Assembly (NCBI GenBank): GCA_019057475.1
Contig: DXJO01000010.1
Span: 128,001 to 192,000 of the forward strand
DNA: 64,000 bases
Origin: Candidatus Thorarchaeota archaeon
GTDB lineage: Archaea > Asgardarchaeota > Thorarchaeia > Thorarchaeales > Thorarchaeaceae
Direction of reading: 5' to 3'
This document shows positions 48,097 to 64,000 of the stretch, in pieces (the first letter of the stretch is position 1; every line of letters begins with the position of its first letter). The notes under the pieces were generated by a model that worked only from the letters and a program-made list of their open reading frames with translations, was not told the origin of the DNA and ran no database searches. The translations under genes and the position numbers were made by a program.

Positions 48097-48108
48097 GAGG
48101 TTGGTGAG

Positions 48109-49644
48109 ATGCAAGGAATAATCGATATCCCCATCCCCTCACACGACCTGATGATTCTCACACTGCTCGGCCTCATCTTCGGTGGACTTCTTGTCATGCT
48201 TGCAGGAAAGTGGTCTGAGAAGGGCGCACAGGCACTTGCAAGTCTTGTTCTACTTGGTGGCCTTGCACTGAACGTATTTCTCCTACTCGGTCCTGAGGTG
48301 TGGAGTGGGGGCGAGGTTCTCTATGAGGTAGTCTGGCTTGGGTCCGCAGATTCCCCAATAATGAACATGGGTTTCAGAGGCGACGGTCTCAGTACACCTA
48401 TTGCCATTCTGGTTCTTGGCTTGGGCCTTTTCTCAATCCTCTTCTCGACGGTCTACATGAAGAATCTGAAGCAGCCTGGTCTGTACTACTCCTTAATGGT
48501 CTGGTTCGTCGCCGCCATGGTGGGGGTAATCTACGCAACGGACCTCATGCAGTTCTTCGTGTTCTACGAGCTGATGCTCATACCTGCTTTCGTCTTGGTA
48601 TACGTCTATGGAGTTTCAGAAGATCCTGTCAAGCGGTCGAAGAACGCCCTTCAGTTCTGGATATGGACTGCCGCAGGCGGGATTGTATCTCTCTTTGCGG
48701 TGTTCATGCTGTTCGGTTACGCTGGCACAATGAGCATCTCGACACTGACGTCAGCATCGATTCCTGTCGAGATTGCAAAGTTCATTGGAATCATCTTTCT
48801 CTTGGGATTCGGCATGAAGCTCGGGCTCGTGCCTTTGCACGTGTGGGCGCCTCCTGTCTATGGTGAAGCGCCCATCCCGGTGCTTATTCTCCTCAGTGGA
48901 GCCATGACCAAGACTGCTGCCTATGGTGTGATTAGAATCGTCATCCCCATTCTATCTGAGGGACTCCGCGGTTACGCCTCTGGTCTGATGGTGATATCTC
49001 TCATCACAATGTTCTACGGCGCAATGATGGCAATCTCCCAAAAGGATCTCAAGATGATGCTTGCTTACTCCAGCATAAGCCAGCTTGGATACTTGATGTT
49101 TGGATACTCGACCATGACCTCCATCGGTGTCAATGGTGCAGCATTCCAGCTGATCAATCACGGGATTCTGGCCAGTCTGACATTCTTCTGTGCGGGTGCC
49201 TTGAAGATGAAGACTGGAACAATGAAATTCGACAAGCTGGGGGGTCTTGCTCCCAAGATGCCCGTACTTGCCACAGTCTACATTATTGGCGCACTCGCTC
49301 TTGCTGGCACTCCACCGATGTCAGCATTCGTGGGCGAGTGGATGATATTCGCCGGTGCAGCTGAACGTACTGCATTGGCCGGAGTTGGCCAGCCATTTTA
49401 CTTGGTCATGACTGTTCTTGCTGTAGTGGCTACGGGTCTTACTGCAGCCTACTACCTCTGGTCCATTAGGCGTATTTTCTTCGGACAAGTTCCGGAAGGT
49501 ATGGAGGACGCCAGGGATTCACCGCGGTTAATCTTGGTAATCACAGGACTGATGGCATTCGTCGTTGTGATTCTAGGCGTTTGGCCATGGATGCTTTGGA
49601 GATTCATAGGTCCGGTTCTGACCGGAGTTGTAGGAGGCGGCTGA
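48109..49644 (+). CDS. nuoM: Proton-translocating subunit NuoM
   Basis: FFVFYELMLIP, KLGLVPLHVW.P, KT.AYG, AYSSISQLG, GEW. Confidence 0.88.
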   Translation: MQGIIDIPIPSHDLMILTLLGLIFGGLLVMLAGKWSEKGAQALASLVLLGGLALNVFLLLGPEVWSGGEVLYEVVWLGSADSPIMNMGFRGDGLSTPIAILVLGLGLFSILFSTVYMKNLKQPGLYYSLMVWFVAAMVGVIYATDLMQFFVFYELMLIPAFVLVYVYGVSEDPVKRSKNALQFWIWTAAGGIVSLFAVFMLFGYAGTMSISTLTSASIPVEIAKFIGIIFLLGFGMKLGLVPLHVWAPPVYGEAPIPVLILLSGAMTKTAAYGVIRIVIPILSEGLRGYASGLMVISLITMFYGAMMAISQKDLKMMLAYSSISQLGYLMFGYSTMTSIGVNGAAFQLINHGILASLTFFCAGALKMKTGTMKFDKLGGLAPKMPVLATVYIIGALALAGTPPMSAFVGEWMIFAGAAERTALAGVGQPFYLVMTVLAVVATGLTAAYYLWSIRRIFFGQVPEGMEDARDSPRLILVITGLMAFVVVILGVWPWMLWRFIGPVLTGVVGGG

Positions 49645-49649
49645 GCTAG

Positions 49650-51209
49650 ATGCAGCTGGATTTCCTGTTCTCTCCTGAGTTTGCGACTGTGATGCCAGTA
49701 CTGATCCCAATCGTCTTTGCGATCTTGGTTGCAGTACTCTCCGAGGGGGTCCGCGTCGCCGTAAAGCGAGTCCCCAAAGGTCTCCCAGACGCTATTGCAG
49801 TCATAGGCTTCGCATTAGCCCTCGTGTACACGTACATGCTTGGAACCGAGGTTTGGGGCAACGGAGTGCACACATTCGTTTTCTCTTGGAGCGGCGGTAA
49901 TTACGTGATGGCCGCAGACGAGTTTTCCGTCTTGATGATGGGACTCTTCACATTCATGGGTCTTGTTGTTGCCTTGTACTCCGTGGGCTACATGAAAAAA
50001 GACACCGGCCTAGCTCAGTACTACATCCTGCTTCTGATCATGGTGGGCGCAATGAACGGAGTCGTGATTTCCACGGACCTGTTCACACTCTACATGTTCT
50101 ACGAGACCATGGGTGTTTGCAGTTTCATCCTTGTGGCTTTCAGAAGGACCTGGGAGGGTATCGAAGCCGCTATCAAGTACCTCATGATGTCTGCGATTGG
50201 GTCGACTCTAGTGCTTATGTCTGCTAGCTACCTTTACGGTCTAACTGGCACGCTCAACCTAGCTCTGATGTCACAGGCATTACAAGCACACCCCGAGAAT
50301 CCTCTTATTCCAATCCTCATTGCCCTACTCACTGCTGGGTTCGCTGTGAAGGGTGCTGTGGTTCCATTTGCAGCATGGCTTGCAGACGCTCATCCAGCGG
50401 CACCAAGTGGCATCAGCGCCATGTTGTCTGCTGTTGTGATCAAGGTTGGCATCTACGGTATCATTCGCATTAACACACTGTTGTTCCCAATTCACACCAT
50501 CTACTTCGACTGGCCGCTATTAATCTCAATCCTAGCCTTAGTGACAATGACCGCCGGCAACTTCTGGGCACTCACACAGAAGGACCTCAAGCGAATGCTG
50601 GCATACAGTTCGATAACTCAGATAGGCTTCATTCTCTTTGCATTCGGAACGGCCACACCATTTGGATATCAGTCCGGAACATTCTACATCGTCGTTCATG
50701 CTCTAACTAAGGGACTCCTATTCCTCTGCGCAGGAGCGTTCCTGCATGCAGTCGGCAGTCGTGATTTGGATGACCTCAAAGGAGTTGGCAAGATGATGCC
50801 TGTGACAGGTGCGTTCTTCGCAATTGGTGTGCTATCTCTCATGGGCATGCCGCCCTTGGCTGGCTTCTACGCGAAGTTCCTGATCCTCGCCGCTGGTGTC
50901 GATGCGGGAATCAACTTCACGGGCTATTACCTGTTGTTCACAGTCGTCGCCCTGTTCAATGCTCTGCTTGGCCTTGGCTACTACCTGAGGATGATAAAGA
51001 CAGTCTGGTTCGAGTCCATGTCCGAGAATGTCAGAAATGCCCATCGTGCTAGTTCTTCAGTCATCTTGGGGATGGGGATTCTTGCAGTCGCCCTTCTGGT
51101 CATAGGTGTGTATCCAGCTCCAATCTACAGTATCGCTGAGGCAGCAGGAACTGCCTTGTTGGACGTCGGTGGTTTCGTCACAGAGATTTTGAGCGCTGGA
51201 ACACCATGA
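49650..51209 (+). CDS. Proton-translocating subunit NuoN/MrpD-like
   Basis: EAAIKY, K...VPF..WL.DAHPAAPS..SA.LS, KRMLAYSSI, PPLAGF.AKF. Confidence 0.88.
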   Translation: MQLDFLFSPEFATVMPVLIPIVFAILVAVLSEGVRVAVKRVPKGLPDAIAVIGFALALVYTYMLGTEVWGNGVHTFVFSWSGGNYVMAADEFSVLMMGLFTFMGLVVALYSVGYMKKDTGLAQYYILLLIMVGAMNGVVISTDLFTLYMFYETMGVCSFILVAFRRTWEGIEAAIKYLMMSAIGSTLVLMSASYLYGLTGTLNLALMSQALQAHPENPLIPILIALLTAGFAVKGAVVPFAAWLADAHPAAPSGISAMLSAVVIKVGIYGIIRINTLLFPIHTIYFDWPLLISILALVTMTAGNFWALTQKDLKRMLAYSSITQIGFILFAFGTATPFGYQSGTFYIVVHALTKGLLFLCAGAFLHAVGSRDLDDLKGVGKMMPVTGAFFAIGVLSLMGMPPLAGFYAKFLILAAGVDAGINFTGYYLLFTVVALFNALLGLGYYLRMIKTVWFESMSENVRNAHRASSSVILGMGILAVALLVIGVYPAPIYSIAEAAGTALLDVGGFVTEILSAGTP

Positions 51210-51234
51210 ACTACTCTTTGAGTCGCAGCCATAG

Positions 51235-51858
51235 TCATCCTATCAATAACACAATGATTGACCTAATTACGAACGTGTAGACAAGATGCAAAATCGTAAC
51301 GAGGAACGAGGCAGCGATGAAGAGCAGTGCATTTGTTCGGGGCTCAGCATCTCTCTTCTTGATAGTCAGGAAGAAGAGCAAGAACAGGAATGATGCCCCA
51401 CCCCAACCGAATGGAACTATTGGCGGCATCTCGTACCAAACAGGTATTGCCTCAGGCGGCCATACCCACCAGCCGGTTTCAGGAGCCCCTGCTGCTATTT
51501 CTACGGGCAACGAGATGAACGCAGTGATGACTGCGGCAGTTAGCAGGATTGCCCAGAGATTATCTTTCCATTTTGGAGCAAATGCTTCAAGGATTCTGTT
51601 TCCAACCACCCAGCTTGCATAGAATGACACAGACCATCCAAACCACATCACCATCGGCGCCGCTCCAATGTAGAACGCATGATCTGGGTAGGAATACATG
51701 CCAGGCATTAGAGCAACAATGTTCTCGCGCACTACTCCAAAGATGAATCCTCCAATGAAGAAAGCGGCCGTTAGCCAATGTTCTCTATGCATCCAGCCAT
51801 GAATGAAGCACAGCAAAGATCCAATCATCACTGCAGCCGTCACTATCTCAGCTAGCAC
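51235..51858 (-). CDS. Membrane protein (carotenoid biosynthesis/CruF-like, tentative)
   Basis: Six TM helices; E...Y.Y, P....GW, E.......WW.W, P.....GW pattern. Confidence 0.6.
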   Translation of the reverse strand: MLAEIVTAAVMIGSLLCFIHGWMHREHWLTAAFFIGGFIFGVVRENIVALMPGMYSYPDHAFYIGAAPMVMWFGWSVSFYASWVVGNRILEAFAPKWKDNLWAILLTAAVITAFISLPVEIAAGAPETGWWVWPPEAIPVWYEMPPIVPFGWGGASFLFLLFFLTIKKRDAEPRTNALLFIAASFLVTILHLVYTFVIRSIIVLLIG

Positions 51859-52033
51859 TCTCTGACCTCCTTAGCTTCAAGACTGCAACAAGCCAAAGCA
51901 CTAACACCAGTGAGAGTGGCACTGCTGAAAGGGCCCGCATCGGGTCTCCAATTATGAACAGATTGACTCCCGTCATTGACAATATCACGCCCAATATCGC
52001 CAAGACTGGGAGAATGTCTTCATGAATCTCCAT
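51848..52033 (-). CDS. Small two-TM membrane protein
   Basis: MEIHEDILPVLAILG...; overlaps the start of the next gene. Confidence 0.55.
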   Translation of the reverse strand: MEIHEDILPVLAILGVILSMTGVNLFIIGDPMRALSAVPLSLVLVLWLVAVLKLRRSESAS

Positions 52034-52066
52034 GTGCAAGACACACCAGTTCTCCATTGATTGGGG

Positions 52067-52346
52067 GGCATGCAACAGCTGCCAAGAACTTGTACAATCC
52101 TGGACATTTTGTAGGTGTTTAAAACATACTGTTCAGGATTGAGTGGTGTGGATGTTCAATGCAGATTGCTAGGACCTCCATGCGATTTGGTCGCCGCCAG
52201 TTGGACGGAGACAGAAAACGCCTGTGGAGAGGACGTGAGACTTGTCGCAGATCCAGTAGGATCTGCAGAGCAGACCTCAATGAATCAGGAACCGAACATC
52301 AGTCAAGGACATTGCTGTCCAAGATTGTGCAAGTTTCGGGCAACGG
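52067..52346 (+). mobile_element. Miniature non-autonomous element C with the same end architecture
   Basis: Left end 52067-52106 and right end 52316-52346 align ungapped with the ends of elements A and B and are imperfect inverted repeats of each other; GG at both junctions. Confidence 0.78.
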
Positions 52347-52351
52347 CGAGT

Positions 52352-53449
52352 CTAAAGGTTTCCTGCTTCCTGGTTTCGTCGAGATTGGGCCGGTCTAATT
52401 AGCTCCCGAATCGTTATCGACATGAATAGCAGGAAACCAATCACGAAGAACGACAGATAACCAAGAACGCTTATGATAGCCGTGATGTCGGGGATGACTG
52501 CCCAGACTAGTATCAAGAGGATAAGCAAACCATACCATCGCTTCAAATCTTTCATTCCTAACAGCTTGGAGTCGGCGCTCGGAATGGACTTGGATTCATC
52601 GACTGGAGGACTTGCATAGATGAGCAATATCACAAAGGCGTAGATGAAGAGAGTAGCGATGATTGTTTCAATACCTGGAATGCGCTCAGGTAGGAGAGTC
52701 GGGAATGTGATTGCGTACAGGAGGACAACGTACGTGCCAGTCAGAGCCAGACCTTTCCTTCCCAATCTCAGTGATTGAATCGAGAACGACCCTCCTCCGC
52801 GCCTTTTGATAAGATAGTACGGGATTAGAATCAGGATAAGGCTGCCAAGCGCTGTAACCCCCGCCACGATGAAATTGTATCCTGAACTAACTGTCATAAA
52901 CAAGGACCCTATGATAAAGGCGTACAGGTATAACACTGAATTCCTTCGACTTCTCTGAAGGAATGAGGTGTGAGTCGGGAAGGTGGTTTCCATTCCCTCA
53001 TTAGACGTGTTGCCAGCTTGAGCTATAATCTGGAATACCAGAATCGGTAGGACGAATGCCATTACTGGGTGCCAGAACATGAGCAGCACGATGTTCTCAG
53101 CAACTGCAAACCCAAAGACCGTGCCAAGAAGAGGTGGATCAGTGAGGTATCCCACCCAGAGAACCTTTGTGACCCACGACTCATAGAGTCCGAATAATAT
53201 TCCCCAGAGATACAGTTGACCCACTGACGTTCTCTTGGATCTCATAGCAAGGTTTAGGAAGAGCAGAGTGTGTGACCAGTAGAGGGGCAGCGTGACAAAC
53301 CAGGCCCACTCGGTGATGAACCAAAGAATGGATGAGCCCGAGAACGCCTCGGCGAACACCATCGACAGGAAGCCGATAAGCACCAACTGAGCCCACCTTG
53401 AATCTGCTGGTTTCTCTGATTCTTGCATGCCCATCCAGATAATTGCCAC
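52352..53449 (-). CDS. Polytopic membrane protein, unknown function
   Basis: About 10 TM helices; FAE..SGS, YE....KVLW, WHP. Confidence 0.75.
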   Translation of the reverse strand: MAIIWMGMQESEKPADSRWAQLVLIGFLSMVFAEAFSGSSILWFITEWAWFVTLPLYWSHTLLFLNLAMRSKRTSVGQLYLWGILFGLYESWVTKVLWVGYLTDPPLLGTVFGFAVAENIVLLMFWHPVMAFVLPILVFQIIAQAGNTSNEGMETTFPTHTSFLQRSRRNSVLYLYAFIIGSLFMTVSSGYNFIVAGVTALGSLILILIPYYLIKRRGGGSFSIQSLRLGRKGLALTGTYVVLLYAITFPTLLPERIPGIETIIATLFIYAFVILLIYASPPVDESKSIPSADSKLLGMKDLKRWYGLLILLILVWAVIPDITAIISVLGYLSFFVIGFLLFMSITIRELIRPAQSRRNQEAGNL

Positions 53450-53524
53450 GCGAATATCTCTTCCTAGAACGAGATGTATTCCAAAGAACTATATCACGTA
53501 CTGGGCGCTCCCGTGTGACCGGAG

Positions 53525-53812
53525 ATGCCTTACTACGTCTACATAATCGAAACAGGGACTGGCACTTACTACACTGGTCAGACTAATGATCTAAAACGAC
53601 GACTGAACGAGCATATGTCCGGGAATTCAAAGTCCGCAGCATACTTTCACATGCATCAGCCCAAGTACCTTGTATACGTGGAAGAATGCAACACCAGAGG
53701 TGATGCTCTTCGTCGTGAGCGTCAGATTAAACGAAATCGACGACTTAAGCTGTTCTTGGTCGGTGACCGACGAGATCTCCAAGGACTCGTGAATTCAGAG
53801 ACCATCTCCTAG
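53525..53812 (+). CDS. GIY-YIG nuclease (UPF0213/YhbQ-like)
   Basis: YYVYI....GTYYTGQTNDLKRRL.EH..G, A.RRE.QIK. Confidence 0.9.
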   Translation: MPYYVYIIETGTGTYYTGQTNDLKRRLNEHMSGNSKSAAYFHMHQPKYLVYVEECNTRGDALRRERQIKRNRRLKLFLVGDRRDLQGLVNSETIS

Positions 53813-53861
53813 GACCGATTAGTTTTCATATCCGGGACATGTTGTTAATGACTGGTGCGCA

Positions 53862-55385
53862 GTGATGACTGAAATAATCTTGGCGTTGGATGTCGGAACC
53901 ACCGGAGTGCGCTCTTTGGTCTTTGACACAGAGGGTGCAGTTCTCGCGCGAGCCTACAAAGAGTTCGAGAGTTCCTATCCCAAGCCCTCCTGGGTGGAGC
54001 AGAATGCGCAAACCTGGTGGGACACTGCCTGCGTAACAACCAAGCAATGCCTCAAAAACCCGGGTGTCAGCGCTGAGAGTATCTGTGGGTTGAGCGTGAC
54101 TAACCAACGTGAAACGGTCGTTCCAATCGACGATGCTGGTAATCCACTACGTAGTGCCATTGTGTGGCAGGACCGTCGAACTGTGCCCCAATGTAACTGG
54201 ATTCGAAATGTCATGTCGCCGGCTGATGTCTATTCAATCACTGGGCTCACCATTGATCCGTACTTCACCGCTCCCAAGATTCTCTGGATAAAGGAGAACG
54301 AGCCTGAGGTCTTCAGAAAGGCTTGGAAGTTTCTCTTGGTTCACGATTTCATGGTCTTCAAGCTCACTGGTAAAACAATTACTGACCATTCCAATGCAAG
54401 CAGAACGATGCTTTTCGACATCAAGAACGCAGGGTGGTCTGAAAAGATGCTCAACGCATTTGACATCCCGCGTGAGAAGCTCCCTGACCCTCTGCAGTCT
54501 GGTACCCCCGCAGGAGAAGTAACTGCGAAGGCAGCCAACGATTGTGGGCTTAAGGAAGGCACTCCTGTGGTTGCGGGAGGCGGAGACCAGCAGTGTGCGG
54601 CGCTAGGAGTGGGTGTGGTTCGCGAGGGCTCAATCAAGTCAACTACAGGAACAGGTACTTTCCTGCTTGCCTACTCTGACACTCCCAGATTCGATAGCAG
54701 AATACGCGTGCTCTGCAGCCGCCATGTTGTCCCGGGCGCCTTTGTTGTGGAGGCAAGCATGTTCACCACGGGCTCAGCTCTCAGGTGGTTTCGCGATAAC
54801 CTTGGTGCGGAGGAGTGCAATCTTGCCAAAGAGCGGGGCGTTGATCCCTATGAGGTCATGTCGGAAGGGGCGGGCGCGATTCCAGCTGGTTCTGAAGGTG
54901 TCATCCACCTGCCGCATTTCGCAGGGGCTGGTGCACCCTACTGGAATCCACACGCGCGTGGTGTGTTTGCCGGTCTTGCCCTTGGCCACACTAGAAAGCA
55001 TCTCATGCGATCTATCTTGGAGGGCGTTTCTTATGAGATTAGAACCAACCTCGAGATCATGAACGATATTGGGATTCCTGCCTCAGAGGTTCGCGTGACT
55101 GGAGGCGCTGCCAGAAGTCAAGTGTGGATGCAGATACAGGCAGATGTGCTTGGAATGCCAGTAATCCGAACCGAGATGGAAGAGGCTACCGCTCTAGGAG
55201 CCGCAATCCTTGCCTGCAAAGGGGTGGGTTTGTTTGACTCGATGGTAGCAGCCGCTGACAGCATGGTGAAACCATTGGATCCACTTAAACCGCAAGAAAC
55301 GAATCGCAACGTCTACGCCGAAGGATTTGCGCGGTTCAAGCAGCTCTATGCTTCAATATCCAACATCGAGTGGCCTAGCCATTAG
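53862..55385 (+). CDS. xylB: FGGY-family carbohydrate kinase (xylulokinase-like)
   Basis: ALDVGTT, WVEQ, NQRET, WQD.R, ASRTML, GGGDQQ, GTG, LEG, GGAARS. Confidence 0.88.
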   Translation: MMTEIILALDVGTTGVRSLVFDTEGAVLARAYKEFESSYPKPSWVEQNAQTWWDTACVTTKQCLKNPGVSAESICGLSVTNQRETVVPIDDAGNPLRSAIVWQDRRTVPQCNWIRNVMSPADVYSITGLTIDPYFTAPKILWIKENEPEVFRKAWKFLLVHDFMVFKLTGKTITDHSNASRTMLFDIKNAGWSEKMLNAFDIPREKLPDPLQSGTPAGEVTAKAANDCGLKEGTPVVAGGGDQQCAALGVGVVREGSIKSTTGTGTFLLAYSDTPRFDSRIRVLCSRHVVPGAFVVEASMFTTGSALRWFRDNLGAEECNLAKERGVDPYEVMSEGAGAIPAGSEGVIHLPHFAGAGAPYWNPHARGVFAGLALGHTRKHLMRSILEGVSYEIRTNLEIMNDIGIPASEVRVTGGAARSQVWMQIQADVLGMPVIRTEMEEATALGAAILACKGVGLFDSMVAAADSMVKPLDPLKPQETNRNVYAEGFARFKQLYASISNIEWPSH

Positions 55386-55594
55386 GTCGAGTAGATAGCT
55401 AGCTTGTTACCCTTGTCCAAGACAAGTATCTTCACGTCTGGATCATTGGATATCCACTCGTCGACTGCAGCTTGTGGGTCCTCCGCCTTGTCCATGTGCG
55501 CTTTTTCTACGGTATCTATGTCGAGATTTGTGAACATCTGAATGCCTCAAAGGACTTCTAAGAGATCAGCGAATTTGTGCGCTTTGTGCTCGTA
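55382..55594 (-). pseudogene. Diverged duplicate of the larA 3' end with an in-frame stop
   Basis: Colinear 212-bp match to 56261-56472; encodes YEHKAHKFADLLEVL*GIQMFT...DKGNKLAIYST*. Confidence 0.9.
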
Positions 55595-55633
55595 GGTCAA
55601 AGGTAGTTCCCTACGTATAGTTATATCGCAGAA

Positions 55634-56167
55634 TTGGTAAATAGACAATGCTTTCCTCAGATGCTTGATACAGAAGGTTATAGAATGAGAGTTTCTGTCT
55701 TGGTTGGATCTCTGGTCATGTTATCCTTGCTAGCTCCCATGACCATTGTTGGTATTGAAAGTCTTGTAGGGATTGGACCACAAACCATGATGGAAGTTTA
55801 CTGGGTCTTCGTCTATGGTACCTATAATTATTCCAATCAGCAGTTTCATTTTCTTGAATTCTACGTATCAGTTTATGTGCTCATGTCACTACTCTGGGTC
55901 TGTATTGGATTGATAATCTCACATGCATTACTCTTTGACAAGTTTCCACAGTCATCAACGAAGGAAGCATGGGTCCTAGGTATGATAGCTCTGGGGGTTC
56001 AATTGACCTCTGCATTTATAGCTCCTCTGTTCCATTTGCAGCCCCCAACCATTCGGACTTTAGCATACTCCATTCCAATCCCCCTTCAGTCCATTTTGTT
56101 GCTTGTCTTTCTAGCATATGATTGGCGTAGTAGACGCCACAGACTACCCAACAATGATCGTTTCTGA
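55634..56167 (+). CDS. Hypothetical membrane protein (islet cargo)
   Basis: Four hydrophobic segments; lies between the two larA 3' ends. Confidence 0.6.
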   Translation: MVNRQCFPQMLDTEGYRMRVSVLVGSLVMLSLLAPMTIVGIESLVGIGPQTMMEVYWVFVYGTYNYSNQQFHFLEFYVSVYVLMSLLWVCIGLIISHALLFDKFPQSSTKEAWVLGMIALGVQLTSAFIAPLFHLQPPTIRTLAYSIPIPLQSILLLVFLAYDWRSRRHRLPNNDRF

Positions 56168-56259
56168 CACGACGTACAACGGTGGTTGGTGGAATGCATT
56201 CATCTTTGCCGCAAATATCGGGGAGCCGACTCCTTTGACTATCAAACGCCCAAGAAATC

Positions 56260-57546
56260 CTAGGTCGAGTAGATAGCTAGCTTGTTGCCCTTGTCCAAAA
56301 CAAGTATCTTCACGTCTGGGTCATTTGATATCCACTCATCGACCACAGCTTGTGGATTCTCCGTCTTGTCTAGGTGAGCCGATTCTACGGTTTCTCTATC
56401 GAGCTCTGTGAACATCTGAATGCTTGAGAGGTTTTTCAGAAGCTCAGCGAACTTGTACGCCTTGTGCTCGTACAGATGATATTTCCCGCTTATCGACTCT
56501 ATCACAGTGTCAAGTGGAGCAGTCAACTTGTTGTAGAAATTCTCCATTGCACTCTCAGGTGCTACACCATCTCTGCACTCAGCAAGAAACAGAATCTCTC
56601 CTCCTTCTGACACTGCATTCTTAGTGAGTTCAAGTGCTCTCTGGGCATGATACAGGCTCTTGTCTTGGGGGTAACCTCCTGGGGACACCACAATGCGTGG
56701 TCTGGCGGTTACAGTGAAGCTTGCCGTTTCATCGAGCACCTTAATGCCATCAGATATCACTGGCTCCATGCGGCCGGCGCCAGCCCACACTACTTTGTCG
56801 CCATTCGATACGGTTGAGAGAGTGAAGATCGTAGCACCCTTGGTTATCATCTCAGCCGCTTCTCTCATGTCATCCGCGAGTGGGTTGGTTCGCCTTGCTG
56901 GGTCTGGGTGGTATGGATGCGTTCCGAAGGTCGACTTGGGGTCAAGTGCCATTGAATGATTGGCTTCGATTGATGCAAACCCGCACACTCCTGGCAAGAA
57001 GTCCTTGAGAGCATTGGAGTATCCACTGAAGTAATGGGCCTTCATATCAGCAAGAGGAACGTACACATTGTGACCGACGGCAGCGGCGTTAACAATGACT
57101 GGCGTACCTCTGCTTGTTTTCCCCAAGTCAGCCATGTCCGGTTCTTGGCAATCATGAATCTTCACTTTGTAGTTCTCAAGCCCGGCATCAGCAGACGCTC
57201 GTTTGATCATGTCCACGATTTCTAGGTTCCCGGGGTGTTCTACTTCGTGTGACCCGGTTGTGACTATGTACTGGATTCTGTGTGCATACTTCAGTTTTGG
57301 GGCAACCGAGCTGAGGAGTGCCCAATGAGGCTCGTCTCTAGTATGGTCCTCCACCAAAACGCAGACACTCCTGCCCTTGACGATATCCGTCAGAGCGGGT
57401 CCGTATGGGTTCGCAAGGACCCTGTTGAGTTCCTCTAGACTATTTTCTGCAGTCCTGGCTTTCTTCGGCGCGACTGTTCCAGCGAGGTTCTTTTCAGGAA
57501 TCTGCAAGTCAACAGTTCCTTCGCCGTAATTTAGAGTCACTTTCAT
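56260..57546 (-). CDS. larA: Nickel-pincer-dependent lactate racemase (LarA) family
   Basis: D.TR, TGSH, G.TSRGTPV, H.FSGYS..K..LPG, NH, SPGGYP.D..LY, AEC.DG. Confidence 0.88.
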   Translation of the reverse strand: MKVTLNYGEGTVDLQIPEKNLAGTVAPKKARTAENSLEELNRVLANPYGPALTDIVKGRSVCVLVEDHTRDEPHWALLSSVAPKLKYAHRIQYIVTTGSHEVEHPGNLEIVDMIKRASADAGLENYKVKIHDCQEPDMADLGKTSRGTPVIVNAAAVGHNVYVPLADMKAHYFSGYSNALKDFLPGVCGFASIEANHSMALDPKSTFGTHPYHPDPARRTNPLADDMREAAEMITKGATIFTLSTVSNGDKVVWAGAGRMEPVISDGIKVLDETASFTVTARPRIVVSPGGYPQDKSLYHAQRALELTKNAVSEGGEILFLAECRDGVAPESAMENFYNKLTAPLDTVIESISGKYHLYEHKAYKFAELLKNLSSIQMFTELDRETVESAHLDKTENPQAVVDEWISNDPDVKILVLDKGNKLAIYST

Positions 57547-57587
57547 CCTGGTTGCCTCAACAACTGGATGGAACAGTCTTTGAAAAG

Positions 57588-59919
57588 GGTTGCCAATAGC
57601 TCCAAGAATCTTGGACAGACTTGGACACTTATTAGATAGTCGTCTGATGAAACACTTTTTGTGGAGTTTGAATTCTATTGCTGTTAGCTATTATAGCCCT
57701 AATTCTGTATGAGTTAATATTCTTCATCTAGGACCACGTTTTGAGGTAGTGGTTGATGAAGTCAGAAAAGCGGCGTCGTCCCCGCTCGTGCAAGACACCC
57801 GAGGCATCGAAACAGAAGACAATGGACGCCAACTATTATGGCTCTTCATCAACTACTTACCTTGTAGAGTCCTTTGCCCTGAACTCCTGTCAACGCGAAG
57901 TAGCACGAAAGGGAAGGGGCAGAGAACCCGACCCCGCGTACAGACGAGACAGGGATAGTTGGACACAGCAGCTAGTCAGTGTAGCAAGAAAGTGTGGGAG
58001 AAAGGTCGACGACATAGACCTAGCGACTCTCACTCTACATTTTGATAACTATGTCAAGGTTGTCAATCTCATCCTCTCACGGATATACCGGACGGATGGC
58101 CGCGCACAGACACTTGGGGAATCACTCTCGAAGTATAGAGGCAGAGCTTACACTCTGCTAAGAGAGCAGAGAGACCTTTGCTATCAACACAATGATGAAT
58201 ACAAAGAACTAGTGTATGAACGACTTCATCGAAATGCGCTTGAGCATGCCGGCAGAACACTGTTGGCTGATTGGACGCGGAGGCAACTCTTCAATGCTGC
58301 GATCAATCTGCTTCACGGGTCACATGATGATGCTCTACGACTTCTGAGAAGAAAGAATATTCCCTCGGACTTGATTCGAAGATTGCGGGACAGTTGCAAT
58401 GCAGTGAAGAAGAATGGTTCCGGATATCATTACGCTCTTAGTGTTCTAAGGCAGATTCGTCTTACTCTTGATAGTCATATTCTAGATACTCTCAGTATCA
58501 AGATCAGTTGGCGTGGAAGACAGAGGAAGAAGGTGTCTTCCTTACTTGCAAAGGGGTCTCCAGACTTTCAGTATGTCGAGAACCTTGTAGAGAACGAGCT
58601 CCGGAGCTGGGCAAAGAATGGATACTCTTTCACCGTCCCGCAACTAAGAAGCCTCAGTCTTGATTTCAGCGCAAGCACTGAGAACTCCATAGGTCAGGGA
58701 TACTGGTTCACTATTGATTCAGAGAGAGAGAATGAGATCATGCTGCACCTTAAGCTTCCTCCGGGGATAGATGGAAGAGAACACAGTGATTCCCCCTACA
58801 AGTCAAAGACCCTGACCTTCAGATTCCTTGACTGGTTGCCAAGAGCTGCGGCAAAAGATGCTGATAAGGCAAACAGAGCTGAGGAGACCGGTGACTATCA
58901 TCGAGGTGACCAGTTGAGGTTCAGAGCTGCAAAGTTCTCAGACATGCATGAACAACTCATGAACACCATTCAGTTCCAGCAGGTGGTTCATAGACTATCA
59001 AGGCTGAAACAAAGGAAGAGGAGTGATTCTACAGAGATTGCAGACCTAGAAGCAAACGCCCAGAGACTCAAGAGCTCCCGACGGAGTGCTCCTCCAAGAC
59101 TTCTCTTGAGAGGGCAGAGGGTCATCCTCCAGATTCCCTTTCTCTCGCCCAACGGTACAGTGAGCTCCAGAGTCCTAGGAGAGAGAGAATACACGACCAA
59201 GGCAGGAGCTGATAGGGGATTAAGAGTACCAGTTGCCCTCTCGGTTGAGAAAGACACCGAGTATGTAGACCTGTACATATCAGTAGAGTCCCTCATTGCG
59301 AAGAGGATGACACTGAGGAAGAATGCGTCGGTCCTACAGTCAGAGGTGGACAGGAGAAGAAACAACTGGGAGCGAAAGCGGCCCGGACAGACTTATCCCC
59401 GGTTCCTCTTCAAGAAGATGAGGCATCTGGAAGCCACATGGAAGAAGGTACGTCGTCTCGACCGCGAGATTGCTCGCATTATTGCATCAAAGACAGTGTG
59501 GTTCTGTGAAGGCCATCGGGTGAAGAAGGTGTTCTTCGAGGACCTGCGGAGCTTCCAAGCTAAAGGTGGTCTTAGGGACCTGTCGTGGTCGCTGAATACG
59601 AACCTGTGGGGAAAGATCATCGACACGGTCAGATACATGCGAGAGTCTCTTGGTCACTCACCCTATAGTGTGTGGACTGTGAACCCGCGGTACACTAGCC
59701 AGACATGCCATGTCTGTGGCGAGAGAGGTGTCAGGGTTGAGAATGAAACCTCGAAGACAAAGAAGAAGGGAGGAGAGTACTTCTATTGCGAAAAGTGTGG
59801 TTCTCATTTTCACGCTGATATAAACGCAGCAAGAAACATAATTCATGTTCAACCAAGATCCAGTGCCGTTCCTGGACGGACAGCTTGATGTCCAAGTTTG
59901 TCCAAATTACAATGAACGA
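57588..59919 (+). mobile_element. Element A: IS607-like, transposase-less element carrying a giant TnpB-like nuclease
   Basis: Inverted TTGGACA-N3-TTGGACA ends (57611-57627 / 59889-59905, 16/17 match); ends shared with elements B and C. Confidence 0.82.
57753..59888 (+). CDS. tnpB: RNA-guided RuvC nuclease, TnpB/Cas12f-like, 711 aa
   Basis: RuvC-I GADRG, RuvC-II FFEDL, VNPRYTSQTCHVCG...CEKCG zinc ribbon, RuvC-III HADINAARNI. Confidence 0.9.
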   Translation: MMKSEKRRRPRSCKTPEASKQKTMDANYYGSSSTTYLVESFALNSCQREVARKGRGREPDPAYRRDRDSWTQQLVSVARKCGRKVDDIDLATLTLHFDNYVKVVNLILSRIYRTDGRAQTLGESLSKYRGRAYTLLREQRDLCYQHNDEYKELVYERLHRNALEHAGRTLLADWTRRQLFNAAINLLHGSHDDALRLLRRKNIPSDLIRRLRDSCNAVKKNGSGYHYALSVLRQIRLTLDSHILDTLSIKISWRGRQRKKVSSLLAKGSPDFQYVENLVENELRSWAKNGYSFTVPQLRSLSLDFSASTENSIGQGYWFTIDSERENEIMLHLKLPPGIDGREHSDSPYKSKTLTFRFLDWLPRAAAKDADKANRAEETGDYHRGDQLRFRAAKFSDMHEQLMNTIQFQQVVHRLSRLKQRKRSDSTEIADLEANAQRLKSSRRSAPPRLLLRGQRVILQIPFLSPNGTVSSRVLGEREYTTKAGADRGLRVPVALSVEKDTEYVDLYISVESLIAKRMTLRKNASVLQSEVDRRRNNWERKRPGQTYPRFLFKKMRHLEATWKKVRRLDREIARIIASKTVWFCEGHRVKKVFFEDLRSFQAKGGLRDLSWSLNTNLWGKIIDTVRYMRESLGHSPYSVWTVNPRYTSQTCHVCGERGVRVENETSKTKKKGGEYFYCEKCGSHFHADINAARNIIHVQPRSSAVPGRTA

Positions 59920-59940
59920 TATCAGTTTTGGTGTATCACT
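59859..59940 (+). ncRNA. Predicted omega-RNA 3' scaffold (to ~59919) plus flank-derived guide
   Basis: Block conserved in element B; hairpins TCCAG/CTGGA and GGACA/TGTCC; loop CGTTC complementary to terminal GAACG. The 5' start is not determinable. Confidence 0.6.
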
Positions 59941-59981
59941 TGTGCAGAATGCTTATCCGTTCTTGATGTTACAGCAGAAGC

Positions 59982-60305
59982 ATGAGTGACCGCTATAGGG
60001 ATGGCACCTTCGCAGAAGCTGGGCGATGGTGTGCAGTCGCATCCGAACTCCCTTGTTCAGTCATAATCATGGTATTTATTGGACATCTTCTAGGTCAGAC
60101 CTGGTGGGGACTGCAGGGTGCAATGACCGGTGCTATGATTGGAGCGATTGTTGGCTTACTACTGGGCATGTACAGTGTCTACATCACGATTCAATACTAC
60201 GACAAGCTGGAAAAAGAGCGTCCAGTCATGCGGCCTTATCAGCCTCCACAGGAGGAGATTTACGAGGACGTTGAATTTCCCGACTACGAGAAACGTACTG
60301 AGTAG
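59982..60305 (+). CDS. AtpZ/AtpI-like small membrane protein
   Basis: Two TM helices with EL...V.....IG..LG......GA.IG..VG...G.Y pattern; next to ATP synthase genes. Confidence 0.6.
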   Translation: MSDRYRDGTFAEAGRWCAVASELPCSVIIMVFIGHLLGQTWWGLQGAMTGAMIGAIVGLLLGMYSVYITIQYYDKLEKERPVMRPYQPPQEEIYEDVEFPDYEKRTE

Positions 60306-60884
60306 CTATTTCACGAAATCAGAGTCATCTGCGTCCAGTACTTCAACTATCAATCTGGTGGAAGTTCGTCCTATCAGTGCTACAATGATCTGAACTAGAA
60401 GAGAAATGAAGAACGCTCCTAGCGCATATCCGAATATTCGAAGAGAAATGGAAGTATGAGATGCAGCCCATGGTTCTAGGAACCACAGATCAACTAGATA
60501 CCAGGTGTAGACACCTGTGGCGAACATGGTCAATACAAGGAGTCCATAGATGAAGATGACTGCCTTGACCCTTGGTGCGTTCATTTTAACTTGCTCGAGG
60601 CCATGTCCAACCACTGCATTGCTAAGCCTCCTAGAAAACCTGAGAAAGACGCTAAAGGCAGCTAGAAAGACAATGAGTGTGATGATAGATAGAATCAACA
60701 ATAGCAAAATCTGAATTTCGGGAGCAATTATGTCTAGGAAGCCTCCAATGTACCAGGCTAAGACAGAACCCACCATCACAATTATCGATAGAATCTCCAC
60801 CACGAAAGTGATAGTCGCAGAACTCCTAAACATTCCTCCAATGTCGAATTGACCATTGTTAGCTTCATCCGTCATATGAACCAC
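60306..60884 (-). CDS. Four-TM hypothetical membrane protein
   Basis: ORF with four hydrophobic helices. Confidence 0.65.
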   Translation of the reverse strand: MVHMTDEANNGQFDIGGMFRSSATITFVVEILSIIVMVGSVLAWYIGGFLDIIAPEIQILLLLILSIITLIVFLAAFSVFLRFSRRLSNAVVGHGLEQVKMNAPRVKAVIFIYGLLVLTMFATGVYTWYLVDLWFLEPWAASHTSISLRIFGYALGAFFISLLVQIIVALIGRTSTRLIVEVLDADDSDFVK

Positions 60885-61071
60885 ACCTGATAGCTGCTAT
60901 CTTCTGGTTTTGAATCCTTCTAATACATCTCATCTGGTACTAGACACGGCGCGATATTCAAACACTCACCATAGGGAGTTTTAACTCGCTGAGATAGCTC
61001 GTCAGCTTTATATCAATCGCGTGGGGGAAGTCAAATAATCCCCTTAAGGCTAATAGTGGGGCGGGTTTGTC

Positions 61072-62139
61072 ATGAAGGCCTACAAGGCTGCGAAAGAATT
61101 CGGATTCGTCAATGCAAGAGTGAGAGGACAGCTGGCACGATCCCTCAATATTGCTGACTACGAACGACTCTTGCGCTCCAAAGACTACAAGAAGTTCATC
61201 GGAGCATTGAGAGGAACCCGCTACGGCCCAGTCATTAGCGCTGCTACCCCTGTGGAGCAGCCGAGTCCTGAGGAGTTGGCGCTGGTTTTGGCCGTTGACT
61301 ACGCTGATGTCAGTCATAGGCTCACCCGGTCTTTGTCTGGGAAGGTACGCCGCTTCGCTAATGCATATTCTTTGGTCTTCTTGACAGAAGGCCTGAAAAC
61401 TGTGATTCGCGGGAAGCATGTGGGGCTTGAGAAGAGCGAGATACTCTCCTTTGTGGTACCAACTTCCACTGCACAGTCAAAAATGTTTGCGCGGTTACTC
61501 AGGAAGGAGAATGTGGAGAAACTCATTGAAGACATCCCGATTCTGGATCTGAAGGTCGCACTTCTCACCAAACTCCCCGCTTACGAAGAGTTCGATTCCC
61601 CAGTACCGCTTGATGTGGCTCTTGAGGAGTGGTACCTGCGAAAGATTATGGACTCACTAGAAGAATTCTCTAGTGACGACAAGCAGAGGATAGTTCAGCT
61701 TCTTGAAGCACGTGTGGACTTGCGTAACACTATCATGATGTTGCGCGCATTGATTCTGGGTTTCAACCGACGTATGATCAATGCTTCAATAGTACGATTC
61801 ACCGAAGACTCGCAGGCATTCGGGGACTCGATAAGCCAACTTGACTCTTGGAGCGGAGTGTTGATGCAGCTCAGGAAAACCAAACATGCCGAGATGGCTA
61901 CTAGGCTCAGGCGGATATATACCAATACCCAAGACTTAGCAGAGATCGAGATGGTTGTGGAAGACTACCTTGCACAACAGATTAAAAAGCAACTTACTGG
62001 TTTCCCATTCCATCTTGGTACTGTGATTGGATTCTTCAACCTCAAATACCTTGAGATGCGAAACTTGATATCCATCGCAGTAGGACTCGAGAAAGGAGAG
62101 CCTGCCTCAATAATAAGACAGATGATTACTATATGGTGA
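61072..62139 (+). CDS. atpC: A/V-type ATP synthase subunit C (d)
   Basis: FVNARVRG, L.GT.Y, K..IRGK, D.RN, K..E.RNL..I..G. Confidence 0.88.
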   Translation: MKAYKAAKEFGFVNARVRGQLARSLNIADYERLLRSKDYKKFIGALRGTRYGPVISAATPVEQPSPEELALVLAVDYADVSHRLTRSLSGKVRRFANAYSLVFLTEGLKTVIRGKHVGLEKSEILSFVVPTSTAQSKMFARLLRKENVEKLIEDIPILDLKVALLTKLPAYEEFDSPVPLDVALEEWYLRKIMDSLEEFSSDDKQRIVQLLEARVDLRNTIMMLRALILGFNRRMINASIVRFTEDSQAFGDSISQLDSWSGVLMQLRKTKHAEMATRLRRIYTNTQDLAEIEMVVEDYLAQQIKKQLTGFPFHLGTVIGFFNLKYLEMRNLISIAVGLEKGEPASIIRQMITIW

Positions 62140-62158
62140 TAATTGGAGGAAGCTAACA

Positions 62159-62560
62159 ATGAAAATCCACACCCTAAAAACCAGTCTTGCCTTACTAGTT
62201 GCCAGTGCACTAATCCTGTTTCTATCTTTGTCAGTACTTGCGTTTCTTGTTAAGGAGATGTACGCTGTCAGCGCATTGAGTATCATGCCGGGCCGTGACA
62301 TCAGGTTGCTGCAAACAACGGATAATACTCTGGCAATTATTGGTCTTGCGTTTGCTGCGGCAATCACCATGGGTACTGCTGGGGTTGGCGCAGCGCTGGG
62401 GATGGCGACGACTGGTGCAGCAGCTCTTGGAGCAATCACTGAGCGGCCGGAGCTTTTTGGCAAGACTGTACTGTATGTGGTGTTCATCGAGGCAGTCGCA
62501 ATCTACGGTTTCGTCATCGCATTCATGCTGGTCGGCTACATTCCATTACTGGTTGGATGA
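62159..62560 (+). CDS. atpK: A/V-type ATP synthase proteolipid subunit K (c)
   Basis: G.G.A.G....AA.GAITERPELFG, FIEAVAIYG. Confidence 0.92.
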   Translation: MKIHTLKTSLALLVASALILFLSLSVLAFLVKEMYAVSALSIMPGRDIRLLQTTDNTLAIIGLAFAAAITMGTAGVGAALGMATTGAAALGAITERPELFGKTVLYVVFIEAVAIYGFVIAFMLVGYIPLLVG

Positions 62561-62615
62561 GGTTCCCCTGAAGATGCATCATCAGCCTCCAGTCACACAC
62601 ACACATTCACGGATA

Positions 62616-63245
62616 TTAGACTGACGTGCTAATGTTTTTGAAAAGAATAGATGAAATTAACTTCCTTATCTCGCTCATCATTCGATCTCTGCGACCCTCG
62701 AGAGTATTGTCCACCCATTTTGTACCATCTTTGTTTTTCACCATGACTCCTCCAGCGGAGCGGATTTTTTCCTTTGACAGTGAAACTCCGGTCTTGATTC
62801 CTGTACGCTTCGTAATTTCCCGGCTTATCTTTGTGAGGTCCAGCTGTGGGCTTTGACCCCAGGGCAGTATTAGCTCAACTTCTTCAACAGCAAGGGCTGA
62901 GCCGCCTTCAATGGCAAGACTAACCAACATGTTAGCATAGCCCTTTGTCTTGTGTTTTTCCGACAGAGATTCAATCGCCAGTTCTAGGACCTCAGTAATC
63001 AGAGCCTCTTTTGCCGCGAGGATTGTGTGCCTCACCGCCAATCTTGCGTTGGCATCTCGCTTCACAATATCTGCTCGAGATTGTATCTCAGCTTCAACCA
63101 TCATTGCAGCTCTGTTGGCCTTGCCTTTCTTCCTTGCGTCCAGAAGCTTTGTTTCACTCAGTTTCCTTGCATCTCTAACTATCTTGTCTTCTTTCTCGGT
63201 CGCCTTTGCCTCAATCATCTTGATGATAGATTGAACACCGCTCAT
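62616..63245 (-). CDS. atpE: A/V-type ATP synthase subunit E
   Basis: MSGV..II..I, helical N-terminus, GGV.V...DG...VDNTLE.R, ILF. Confidence 0.9.
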   Translation of the reverse strand: MSGVQSIIKMIEAKATEKEDKIVRDARKLSETKLLDARKKGKANRAAMMVEAEIQSRADIVKRDANARLAVRHTILAAKEALITEVLELAIESLSEKHKTKGYANMLVSLAIEGGSALAVEEVELILPWGQSPQLDLTKISREITKRTGIKTGVSLSKEKIRSAGGVMVKNKDGTKWVDNTLEGRRDRMMSEIRKLISSILFKNISTSV

Positions 63246-63249
63246 ATCT

Positions 63250-63570
63250 TTACTCCCCTCCAAGTATCATCTCTACCACCGCACGCACTGCAACAGGCTT
63301 TCTATCTATTGAGGCCTCCTGCATCTGAGCGATTATTTTATCAACCTTCTTCTGGAACTTGCGTTCCCTGGCAGCTCTCTTTTCCTCGTTTTCGTCTAAC
63401 CGGGCTTCAGCCGCCTTCTTCCCCTTGGCGTCACTGTTCTTCATTATCTTCTTGATACTACTCTCAGTCTGCTTCCGAATCTCTCTTGCATTGTCCTCCG
63501 CGGCGCGAATTCTGTCCTCTGCTGTTTCTTCTGCCTTACGAATCAAATCGATGTCTTGAGCCTTGGGCAT
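63250..63570 (-). CDS. atpH: A/V-type ATP synthase subunit H/G
   Basis: IRKAEETAEDRIRAAE..A coiled coil, AV..VVE.IL C-terminus; start MPKAQD. Confidence 0.75.
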   Translation of the reverse strand: MPKAQDIDLIRKAEETAEDRIRAAEDNAREIRKQTESSIKKIMKNSDAKGKKAAEARLDENEEKRAARERKFQKKVDKIIAQMQEASIDRKPVAVRAVVEMILGGE

Positions 63571-63808
63571 AAAGTCTTTCCTCGCAACGTACTGTATCAG
63601 AAGTCCATAACTGGAATTCAAGATAAACATTAGCCTGCGCCGGCATGAATGATGTATTCGGTTCATTCGCGTGGTCATGGATAGTGAGTGGTTTACCCTT
63701 GATGTGGTTTCATAAGTCACAACGTTTATTTCTGGAGGACAAGCTTTGAGCCTTAAGGTGTCTGAACTGTTTGTTCTTCTATGACCCTCACTGACGGTGA
63801 TGTTGAAT

Positions 63809-64000
63809 ATGCGCCCCGAGAGTACGCTAGTTGCCAAGGTTGTTTCCCATCGCGACCTTGAGAGACAGGTCATTCTAGCTTTGGGGCAGTTCAGTCAGTT
63901 CGAATTCATCGATGTGCGGCTTCAAGCTGAGTTCATTGAAGTAAAAAAATCAGAAATAGAAGAAGACGTTCTTGATGCTCTTGAAAGGCTCTCCAAAGTA
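63809..64000 (+). CDS. atpI: A/V-type ATP synthase subunit I (a), N-terminus (runs off window)
   Basis: Manual translation MRPESTLVAKVVSHRDLERQVILALGQFSQFEFIDV; GGTGA RBS upstream. Confidence 0.7.
   Translation, partial: MRPESTLVAKVVSHRDLERQVILALGQFSQFEFIDVRLQAEFIEVKKSEIEEDVLDALERLSKV

Follow-up and report, generated by a model that had tools for sequence, protein, structure and literature searches.

An enlarged TnpB-family gene as the sole gene of a small non-autonomous transposon in a Candidatus Thorarchaeota genome

Introduction

TnpB proteins ordinarily measure 390-460 aa. In a stretch of 64,000 nucleotides from a Candidatus Thorarchaeota archaeon (contig DXJO01000010.1, positions 128,001 to 192,000), referred to in its full length as the window, an open reading frame for a TnpB/Cas12-like protein of about 710 residues raises the question of what such a large protein is, how its gene came to this place, and whether it acts alone or as part of a larger system. 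The best explanation, which is considered probable, is that this gene encodes an active, enlarged RNA-guided endonuclease of the TnpB family and is the sole gene of a 2,331-bp non-autonomous transposon, here called element A, with a guide RNA encoded at its 3' end. The evidence comes from the protein and its family, the ends of the element, the structure at its right end, and the relatives of the locus in the same and other genomes.

Reading frame, catalytic core and selection

The frame is open from 57753 to 59888 on the plus strand, giving 711 codons when read from TTG 57753, and ends with the stop codon TGA at 59886-59888. Since the ATG at 57756 aligns with the initial Met of the homologues, whose length is mostly 707-710 aa, a product of 710 aa is more likely. 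The gene and its two main parts are as follows:

57756 to 59888, plus strand: tnpB-like open reading frame, 710 aa from the ATG or 711 aa from TTG 57753, with a ratio of nonsynonymous to synonymous substitution rates (dN/dS) indicating purifying selection
59076 to 59852, plus strand: RuvC and TNB zinc-ribbon core, with D487 at 59211-59213, E596 at 59538-59540, D689 at 59817-59819 and Cys652-Cys682 at 59706-59798
57753 to 59075, plus strand: family-specific N-terminal part of about 440 residues, with WED-like strands and two helical regions and no match in Pfam or NCBIfam

The RuvC motifs of the protein are GADRG (D487), FFEDL (E596) and HADINAARN (D689), and the zinc ribbon is formed by the pairs C652xxC655 and C679xxC682. 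In an alignment of the full-length homologues, the three acidic residues and the four cysteines are invariant (53/53), and conservation spans the whole length of the protein. Frame, motifs and this invariance confirm what the original prediction, made from the sequence, had described as a 711-aa TnpB/Cas12-like nuclease with an intact D-E-D triad and two CxxC pairs; the basic patch KRRRPR that it had placed near the N-terminus occupies residues 6-11.

By sequence, the relationship to known proteins is concentrated in the C-terminal part. Residues 619-696 match the Cas12f1-like TNB family of Pfam (PF07282, E 1e-15), and residues 483-697 match the NCBIfam model guided_TnpB (NF040570) at 60.7 bits against a cut-off of 100, below the threshold for the full-length family, which is attributed to the divergent N-terminus and not to a missing part of the core. 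A profile-profile alignment by hhalign with ordinary TnpBs of 390-460 aa covers residues 442-700 only (probability 99.9%) and places E596 on their canonical EDL glutamate, in agreement with the earlier argument that the glutamate position speaks against a rearranged active site of the Fanzor type. The nearest solved structure by sequence is that of CnCas12f1 (8hr5, E 7e-6).

Compared with its closest relatives at two loci (L008 and L009, 92% amino acid identity), the gene has a dN/dS of 0.19, and values of 0.10-0.13 were obtained against more distant relatives; the whole protein is thus under purifying selection. Taken together, the frame in the window encodes an intact, enlarged member of the TnpB family with an intact active site.

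The enlarged N-terminal part

The first ~440 residues have no match in Pfam or NCBIfam and no hhalign alignment to ordinary TnpBs, in which a WED/REC part of ~145 residues stands at the corresponding place. An AlphaFold (AF2) model of the protein has a predicted local distance difference test score (pLDDT) of 77 overall and about 90 over residues 100-290. In this model, the N-terminal part is mostly helical, with additional WED-like strands at residues 36-43, 317-359 and 449-464, so that the earlier description of ~480 aa of unrecognised, largely helical sequence holds in both respects and has to be supplemented by these strands. Comparisons of the model with the structures of Cas12f, TnpB (ISDra2 and ISFba1) and Fanzor2, which the original prediction had proposed for ISDra2 TnpB, Cas12f and Fanzor, gave fold matches from residue ~34 to residue ~705 against the whole of these proteins, with Z 14-17.6 for AsCas12f and the TnpBs:

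AsCas12f (8dzj): Z 17.6, 368 residues aligned
CnCas12f1 (8hr5): Z 16.1
Fanzor2 of mimivirus (9b0l): Z 15.2, 365 residues aligned
ISDra2 TnpB (8h1j): Z 14.3, 351 residues aligned

The superposable part comprises about 350-385 of the 711 residues, with a sequence identity of 12-17% to Cas12f and ISDra2 TnpB. According to the model, WED and REC lobes would be present in the TnpB/Cas12 arrangement, enlarged and invisible to sequence methods. The secondary structure of the model divides the extra ~300 aa into three parts, namely the low-confidence segments 1-36 and 45-87 (pLDDT <50), a helical region at 90-289, and a helical insert at 362-442 located between WED-like strands. The previously suggested "expanded-REC" TnpB is therefore roughly correct, but the extra residues are not a single REC insertion.

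With Cas12f entries as its best structural matches and a size similar to that of Cas12j and Cas12g, the protein might be taken for a type V CRISPR effector (a Cas12 subtype) with its array elsewhere. This reading is almost certainly wrong. Tandem Repeats Finder (TRF) reported nothing in the whole window, and no regularly spaced direct repeats were found in 52000-64000 or 44000-61000, so that, within these ranges (44000-64000 for the repeat scans), the earlier statement of a missing CRISPR array is borne out. Moreover, no Cas1 was found by PF01867 in the same genome, the gene has transposon ends and mini-element relatives, and a conserved RNA lies at its own 3' end, as in TnpB.

Distribution of the family

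More than 200 homologues of about 700-720 aa were found, and all named ones come from Candidatus Thorarchaeota (53-94% identity). Likewise, all 80 related loci belong to Thorarchaeota or to Asgard metagenome-assembled genomes. In a HMMER scan of 1.84 billion representatives, full-length coverage was provided by the family itself only (two 50% clusters plus fragments), and the next matches, at E ~1e-13, were limited to the RuvC part. When a sample of the phylum comprising 150 genomes was searched with the N-terminal 470 aa, this part was present in one GTDB family only (10/26 genomes) and in none of the 124 genomes from 26 other families; the matches were patchy and numbered 1-10 per genome. 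The clade of 710-aa TnpBs is Thorarchaeota-specific.

Element borders and mobility

The gene lies within an element whose ends could be mapped:

57588 to 59918, plus strand: element A as a whole, a 2,331-bp non-autonomous transposon with the large tnpB as its sole gene
57588 to 57664, plus strand: left end, GGTTGCCAATAGCTCC...CTTGGACAGACTTGGACAC..., 70% complementary to the mini-element arm
45036 to 45226, minus strand: gene-less mini-element with both ends of element A, one of about 17 copies

Two arms of element A, at 57584-57630 on the left and 59889-59918 on the right, match, reversed, both ends of the mini-element at 45036-45226. The genome has about 20 occurrences of the last 60 nt (59859-59918), of which about 17 belong to gene-less elements of 186-188 bp. 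In each of these, the left end is GGGTTGCAAACAGCTGC, a TATA-like box is present, and the right end with its RNA structure is that of element A. A GG core is found at both junctions, as in IS607-type elements: among 17 mini-elements the left junction is G|GGTT in 15 and G|GATT or G|CGTT in two, and at the right junction most of 70 copies have AACGG|T. A general search for target-site duplications flanking the units of tnpB and the giant gene described below found nothing above shuffled controls, three odd cases aside. A second kind of mini-element was observed at 52067-52346; its two arms, one at 52075-52110 and an inverted one at 52315-52344, are similar to the left end of element A.

The site is empty in five same-genus genomes, where sequence matching the larA flank extends exactly to 57587 and then gives way to the right flank; the empty-site sequence in the genus is …CTTTGAAAAGGATTAACC…. 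One of these genomes (G010) carries a copy on another contig that is 91% identical over the N-terminal 470 aa. Because its ends recur in mini-elements and its site is empty in these five genomes, element A is a mobile transposon of 2,331 bp that has a single gene and is non-autonomous. This mobile-element setting with its mini-element relatives was missing from the original prediction, as was the giant Cas1-like partner of the clade.

The left end has a history of its own. It resembles the left end of an 8.6-kb element on contig C53 of the same genome, which starts GGGTTCCGTAACTGC, and the closest relatives, L008 and L009, have upstream sequence in common with element A only from about 57665 on. 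The segment 57588-57664 was therefore probably gained by recombination with another element of the group. A search for a fixed left-end motif in the related loci found none, which is explained by variation of the left ends between sub-lineages.

The empty sites also bear on the idea that the protein is a domesticated TnpB in host use, for example a TldR-like RNA-guided regulator or a defence nuclease. In its favour, a sub-lineage of the C54 type (~50% identical) adjoins a tRNA gene, the sequence after its right end, CCAGTGGCTTAGC..., is conserved in several genomes, and purifying selection on the whole protein is strong. On the other hand, element A is absent from the same site in five same-genus genomes, the flank in the window is not conserved, copy number is variable and patchy, and the protein has kept its catalytic triad, unlike most of the exapted TnpBs on record, which are inactivated (PMC10691335). 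For the window copy, domestication is thus very unlikely. As to the sub-lineage itself, the flank CCAGTGGCTTAGC... is conserved between genomes at L104 (C54), L020, L023, L025, L034, L055 and L068, with an apparent 3' end of a tRNA gene after it in C54, L020 and L023. This conservation suggests that the location is fixed or site-specific and that the guide is fixed as well.

The predicted guide RNA

The right end of the element and the sequence beyond it contain the two parts of a predicted guide (omega) RNA:

59859 to 59918, plus strand: 3' scaffold of the predicted RNA, with hairpin 1 at 59859-59876, nested hairpin 2 at 59878-59903, and a pseudoknot of 59866-59871 with 59914-59918
59919 to 59940, plus strand: flank that would template the guide segment

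All related loci have a common right-end architecture, which consists of hairpin 1 (NCCAG-TGCCGTTN-CTGGN), a nested hairpin 2 (GGAC…CTTG-loop-CAAG…GTCC) and the terminus ACAAT(G/C)AACGG. In the window, the loop CCGTTC (59866-59871) pairs with the terminal GAACG (59914-59918) to form the pseudoknot. Covariation was counted on 42 aligned right ends, with shuffled (500) and slid alignments as controls:

Cells paired: 89.7% observed, 81.0% shuffled, 25-50% slid
Cells changed on both sides: 84 observed, 31.5 shuffled
Covariation score: 0.29 observed, 0.136 shuffled (0/500 reach 0.29), at most 0.11 slid

Hairpin 1 is paired in 100% of cases and contains two covarying pairs, 4-21 (CG 23, UA 18, GC 1) and 8-17 (GC 28, CG 10, GU 4). 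The pseudoknot pair 16-73 also varies in concert (CG 17, GC 13, UA 4), and its two sides switch jointly from CCGTTC:GAACGG to CCGTTG:CAACGG (GTTC:GAAC to GTTG:CAAC). A covarying RNA structure is thus present at the right end, of the kind to be expected for the scaffold of a guide RNA. Both hairpins are recovered by a minimum-free-energy fold, and Rfam gave no hit over the window. As the scaffold overlaps the last ten codons of tnpB, the conserved SSAVPGRTA tail of the protein is dual-coding.

Beyond the scaffold, 70 right-end flanks were compared after ...AACG. A G stands at position +1 in 54 of them and a T at position +2 in 61, and the information content further on is about zero. A flank that becomes uninformative after 2 nt is consistent with a guide produced by read-through into it; if known TnpB systems are a model, the flank in the window might be used as a guide of about the length given above.

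Proposed mechanism and movement

In the preferred explanation, the 3' end of tnpB and the right end would together encode an omega RNA scaffold of two hairpins locked by a pseudoknot, and transcription continuing past the right end would append a guide templated by the flank. If the protein works like the TnpBs studied so far, its complex with this RNA would cleave those copies of the site from which the element is missing, whether through loss or because it was never there, and the element would be retained by repair templated on the occupied copy. The target-adjacent motif is probably G-rich, since the left junctions read (A)G|GGTT. For the window TnpB itself, we infer RNA binding, guide use, a target-adjacent motif and cleavage.

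Movement would depend on a recombinase supplied in trans, for which the best candidate is an IS607-type serine recombinase and a possible alternative is the giant Cas1-like partner. No serine recombinase is found in the window element, and most related loci have none within the fetched flank. The relative on C53 (L103, 670-9301), in contrast to element A, is an 8.6-kb unit composed of the left end, an IS607-type TnpA, the giant gene, a tnpB for 763 aa and the right end; its tnpA at 742-1275 encodes a MerR helix-turn-helix (HTH) at residues 1-48 and a resolvase domain at residues 65-158. In addition, an IS607-type TnpA (MerR HTH plus resolvase) is encoded directly upstream of tnpB at L022, L037, L063, L070 and L082. 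As the junctions read (A)G|GGTT and AACGG|T and a general target duplication was not found, serine-recombinase chemistry fits better than Cas1-type integration, and IS607-type mobilisation of element A in trans is favoured. It was also observed that in the C53 element the first 12-13 nt of the left end (GGTTCCGTAACTG) are repeated directly after the right end, with a similar arrangement at L056 and L061.

Several observations weigh against parts of this explanation. The right junction of element A is atypical, reading AACG|AT and not AACGG|T, and the 39 nt to the right of the element (59919-59957) are the reverse complement of the empty-site sequence gattaaccattctgcacaagtgatacaccaaaactgatat in the five same-genus genomes. 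As the inverted block is bracketed by the terminal GAACG of the element and by CCGTTC in the flank, it looks like the product of an inversion with the right-end core and an inverted pseudo-site as its two endpoints, which would change the predicted guide. With the junction atypical and the flank inverted, the guide of the window copy may no longer match the empty site as usual. Thermodynamic folding of a 179-nt 3' region was no better than that of shuffled sequences (z = -0.15), and the case for the RNA therefore comes down to covariation in the last 60 nt. Moreover, TTGGACA-like repeats occur in both ends of the element and overlap hairpin 2; they could be recombinase-binding sites. Finally, only one recombinase-bearing copy of the 710-aa family, that on C53, was found in the same genome.

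The atypical right junction with its inverted 39-nt flank, the apparently swapped left end, and the presence of family fragments elsewhere in the genome (C39, with an in-frame TAG, and C16) speak for the reading that the window contains a stranded, decaying copy, the gene of which is intact only through recent insertion and which no longer forms a useful RNA-protein complex. Such a state is highly improbable: the frame is of full length with all conserved residues kept, dN/dS is 0.19 against copies in other genomes that are 92% identical, and the promoter-like and RNA elements are intact.

The giant Cas1-like neighbour

A giant open reading frame is found near tnpB in 49 of the 80 related loci, and the complete ones encode 1,407 to about 1,930 aa. 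In 45 loci the two genes are arranged head-to-head, with the giant 135-370 nt upstream of tnpB on the opposite strand, and in the remaining four they are in tandem, separated by a RadA/KaiC-like ATPase gene. A variant order on one strand was observed at L009, L032, L040, L046 and L083, namely the giant, the RadA/KaiC-like ATPase, an unknown protein of 230-240 aa, and tnpB. The genome that contains the window has five head-to-head pairs, each with a giant of 1,646-1,822 aa, a TnpB-like protein of 558-763 aa, and a gap of 180-360 nt:

L100: C9, 15748-22933
L101: C18, 41295-48280
L102: C42, 28775-36123
L103: C53, 1344-9286
L104: C54, 166132-173867

The pairs on C53 and C54 belong to the 710-aa family, and those on C9, C18 and C42 to a second, smaller TnpB-like family of 558-598 aa, the giant partners of which are homologous to those of the 710-aa family. 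The pair on C9 lies just 3' of a 16S rRNA gene, and a 17-nt string of the 16S sequence, TTCTTGCACACACCGCC, is found again about 100 nt downstream of the stop codon of the TnpB-like gene. The giant family is Thorarchaeota-only. No giant gene stands beside the tnpB of the window, and element A and the ~17 mini-elements carry none.

Sequence searches with the giant gave little. Pfam and NCBIfam yielded nothing beyond one insignificant SbcD match (E 0.036), no sequence match was found in the PDB by phmmer or by profile search, hhalign against eight Asgard Cas1s gave a probability of 0.1%, and a feature search of the ESM Atlas gave a score of 0.77, below the usable level. A model of the first 1,150 residues (pLDDT 81) was more informative. 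Residues 1-230 were predicted to adopt the fold of the Cas1/casposase catalytic domain, with ten Cas1 entries at Z 12.7 to 9.0 and no other matches to this region among 50 listed, and residues 608-890 to adopt a RecA/KaiC/Rad51 fold (Z ~12). The invariant H165-x5-D171-x2-D174 (LDFVDMIR) resembles LDLSEEFR of Cas1, the invariant stretch GRVDL…EIKTK (D416, E444, K446) resembles a PD-(D/E)xK nuclease motif, and the C-terminus is Cys/His-rich. The likeness of the giant to Cas1 is thus one of predicted fold and motif.

A search with PF01867 had found no Cas1 in the same genome or in five relatives, and the reading of the clade as "not aCas1-associated" that was taken from this result has been withdrawn, as the N-terminus of the giant matches Cas1 by fold. 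Two other candidates were set aside. A bridge through other large Cas1 fusions (L127, L128 and L129) failed, since these match neither the giant nor the TnpB profile; they were observed in another Asgard family as open reading frames of 1,323-1,363 aa with weak Pfam Cas1 matches (E 1e-10 to 1e-6) and no TnpB of the 710-aa family beside them. Aloposons, which are tandem genes for 3,000-6,000 aa at tRNA sites (PMC8813620), were ruled out as a match for the giant loci.

The frequent pairing leads to an alternative in which the large TnpB and the giant Cas1-like protein are a two-part system, for instance an RNA-guided module that directs or assists Cas1-like integration, the window copy being a detached half that serves giants elsewhere. 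The linkage in 49 of 80 loci, 45 of them head-to-head, speaks for such a system; all five giants of the same genome have a TnpB-like neighbour on the other strand at 180-360 nt, and the linkage outlasts the change to a tandem order in which a RadA-like ATPase gene separates the two. The features predicted for the giant, namely the fold of Cas1 at its N-terminus, the PD-(D/E)xK-like motif and the RecA-like domain, also count in favour, and aCas1 has been proposed as the transposase of such loci (PMC10691335). The linkage may, however, reflect only a shared transposon. The state without a giant is scattered on the tree (about 12 changes, with giant, tnpA and neither contexts interspersed), so TnpB persists without this neighbour; element A and the ~17 mini-elements have no giant gene; and the active site is intact, unlike that of the nuclease-dead Cas12k of CRISPR-associated transposons. 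On balance, this alternative is unlikely. It is quite unlikely, too, that the enlarged N-terminal half is an adaptation to the giant within a joint RNA-guided machine for integration or homing, specific to Asgard archaea and different from IS607 transposition as well as from CRISPR-associated transposons, to which the solo copy and the mini-elements would supply guide and nuclease in trans; such a machine would be of high interest if true. The explanation preferred here, an enlarged TnpB on a solo non-autonomous element, leaves what the ~1,800-aa Cas1-like partner does with its near-constantly paired TnpBs as the most interesting question. To our knowledge, this pairing has been noted in the literature and never bench-tested.

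Upstream signals and neighbouring genes

Upstream of the gene, a promoter and leader of archaeal type may be recognised:

57714 to 57747, plus strand: putative archaeal promoter and leader read from the sequence, with TATA-like TTAATATT at 57714-57721 and GAGGT at 57743-57747

In a comparison of upstream regions, a TTTATAT box and GAGGT are retained in most related loci, and a promoter/leader role of TTAATATT and GAGGT in the window is putative. The insertion site of element A has larA on one side and a gene for a small membrane protein on the other. The 3' end of larA occurs twice, as a direct repeat of 212 nt (55383-55594 and 56261-56472, 84% identical), and an unannotated open reading frame of 177 aa lies between the two copies.

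Comparison with known systems

The closest described counterparts are two Asgard-linked, aCas1-associated TnpB groups, "Cas1H-Asgard-1/-2", reported by Altae-Tran et al. 2023 (PMC10691335), in whose loci a conserved T is followed by a variable stretch and this by a GTTCACTCA motif (PMC10691335). As in those groups, Asgard-restricted TnpBs stand here beside a putative Cas1 homologue in transposon-like loci, a conserved T follows the scaffold end and precedes a variable stretch (here AACGG-T), and two groups can be distinguished, the 710-aa family and the smaller 558-598-aa family. In the smaller group, GTTCACTCA-like motifs (gtgttcactcac, tttcactcac and gtcactcac) occur near or after the stops of the TnpB-like genes on C9, C18 and C42 (34447-36123). 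The 710-aa family differs in having no conserved motif downstream of the variable stretch (70 flanks), and protein size and structure, the IS607-type recombinase of some copies, the solo 2.3-kb form and the mini-elements are not described in that report (PMC10691335). On the strength of the conserved T, the GTTCACTCA-like motifs of the smaller group and the number of groups, it is highly probable that the giant is the aCas1 of Altae-Tran et al. (PMC10691335), and likely that the 710-aa family is one of the two aCas1-TnpB groups, a match made by described features and not by position in their tree. The original prediction had named membership in an already described clade of equal length as a finding that would count against it, and this probably applies in part, two aCas1-linked Asgard TnpB groups being already listed (PMC10691335). 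It is very likely, in other words, that the clade is in the literature and hence not an undescribed lineage. The groups of Altae-Tran et al. are reportedly built on work by Makarova et al. 2020.

Compared with IS607 and solo-TnpB elements of the IS1341 type, the relatives of element A are similar in their RNA scaffold overlapping the tnpB 3' end and the right end, their asymmetric ends, and GG at both junctions. Like IS607 elements, some copies encode a TnpA with MerR-HTH and resolvase domains, and non-autonomous solo forms and stand-alone RNA mini-elements occur. Unlike in IS607/IS1341-type elements, the protein is ~300 aa longer at its N-terminus and most copies have a passenger or partner gene for ~1,400-1,930 aa; unlike in IS607 elements, TnpA was seen in a minority of the loci only. 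As for the copy in the window, it is a non-autonomous derivative of the ordinary kind. For bench work, the system offers mapped ends, a compact covarying scaffold, empty sites as targets, and many natural guide-only mini-elements. The interest earlier claimed for both evolution and editing remains for the evolutionary comparison and not for editing, as the size of the protein takes away the main appeal of TnpB as a tool.

With Cas12f (8dzj, 8hr5) and ISDra2 TnpB (8h1j), the protein shares the order WED, REC, RuvC, TNB, the D-E-D triad and the zinc ribbon; unlike Cas12f, it has no CRISPR array at its locus. Fanzors are found in eukaryotic or viral hosts, and Fanzor1 has a rearranged RuvC-II glutamate. 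The protein resembles Fanzor2 (9b0l) as an enlarged TnpB descendant with IS607-type ancestry, a basic N-terminus and a fold match of Z 15.2, and differs from Fanzor in its archaeal host and canonical RuvC-II glutamate, with no closer sequence relationship to Fanzor2 seen. It is thus a natural TnpB that nearly doubled in size without becoming a CRISPR effector, in a clade confined to close archaeal relatives of eukaryotes, and offers a useful point of comparison for the growth of TnpB into Cas12 and Fanzor.

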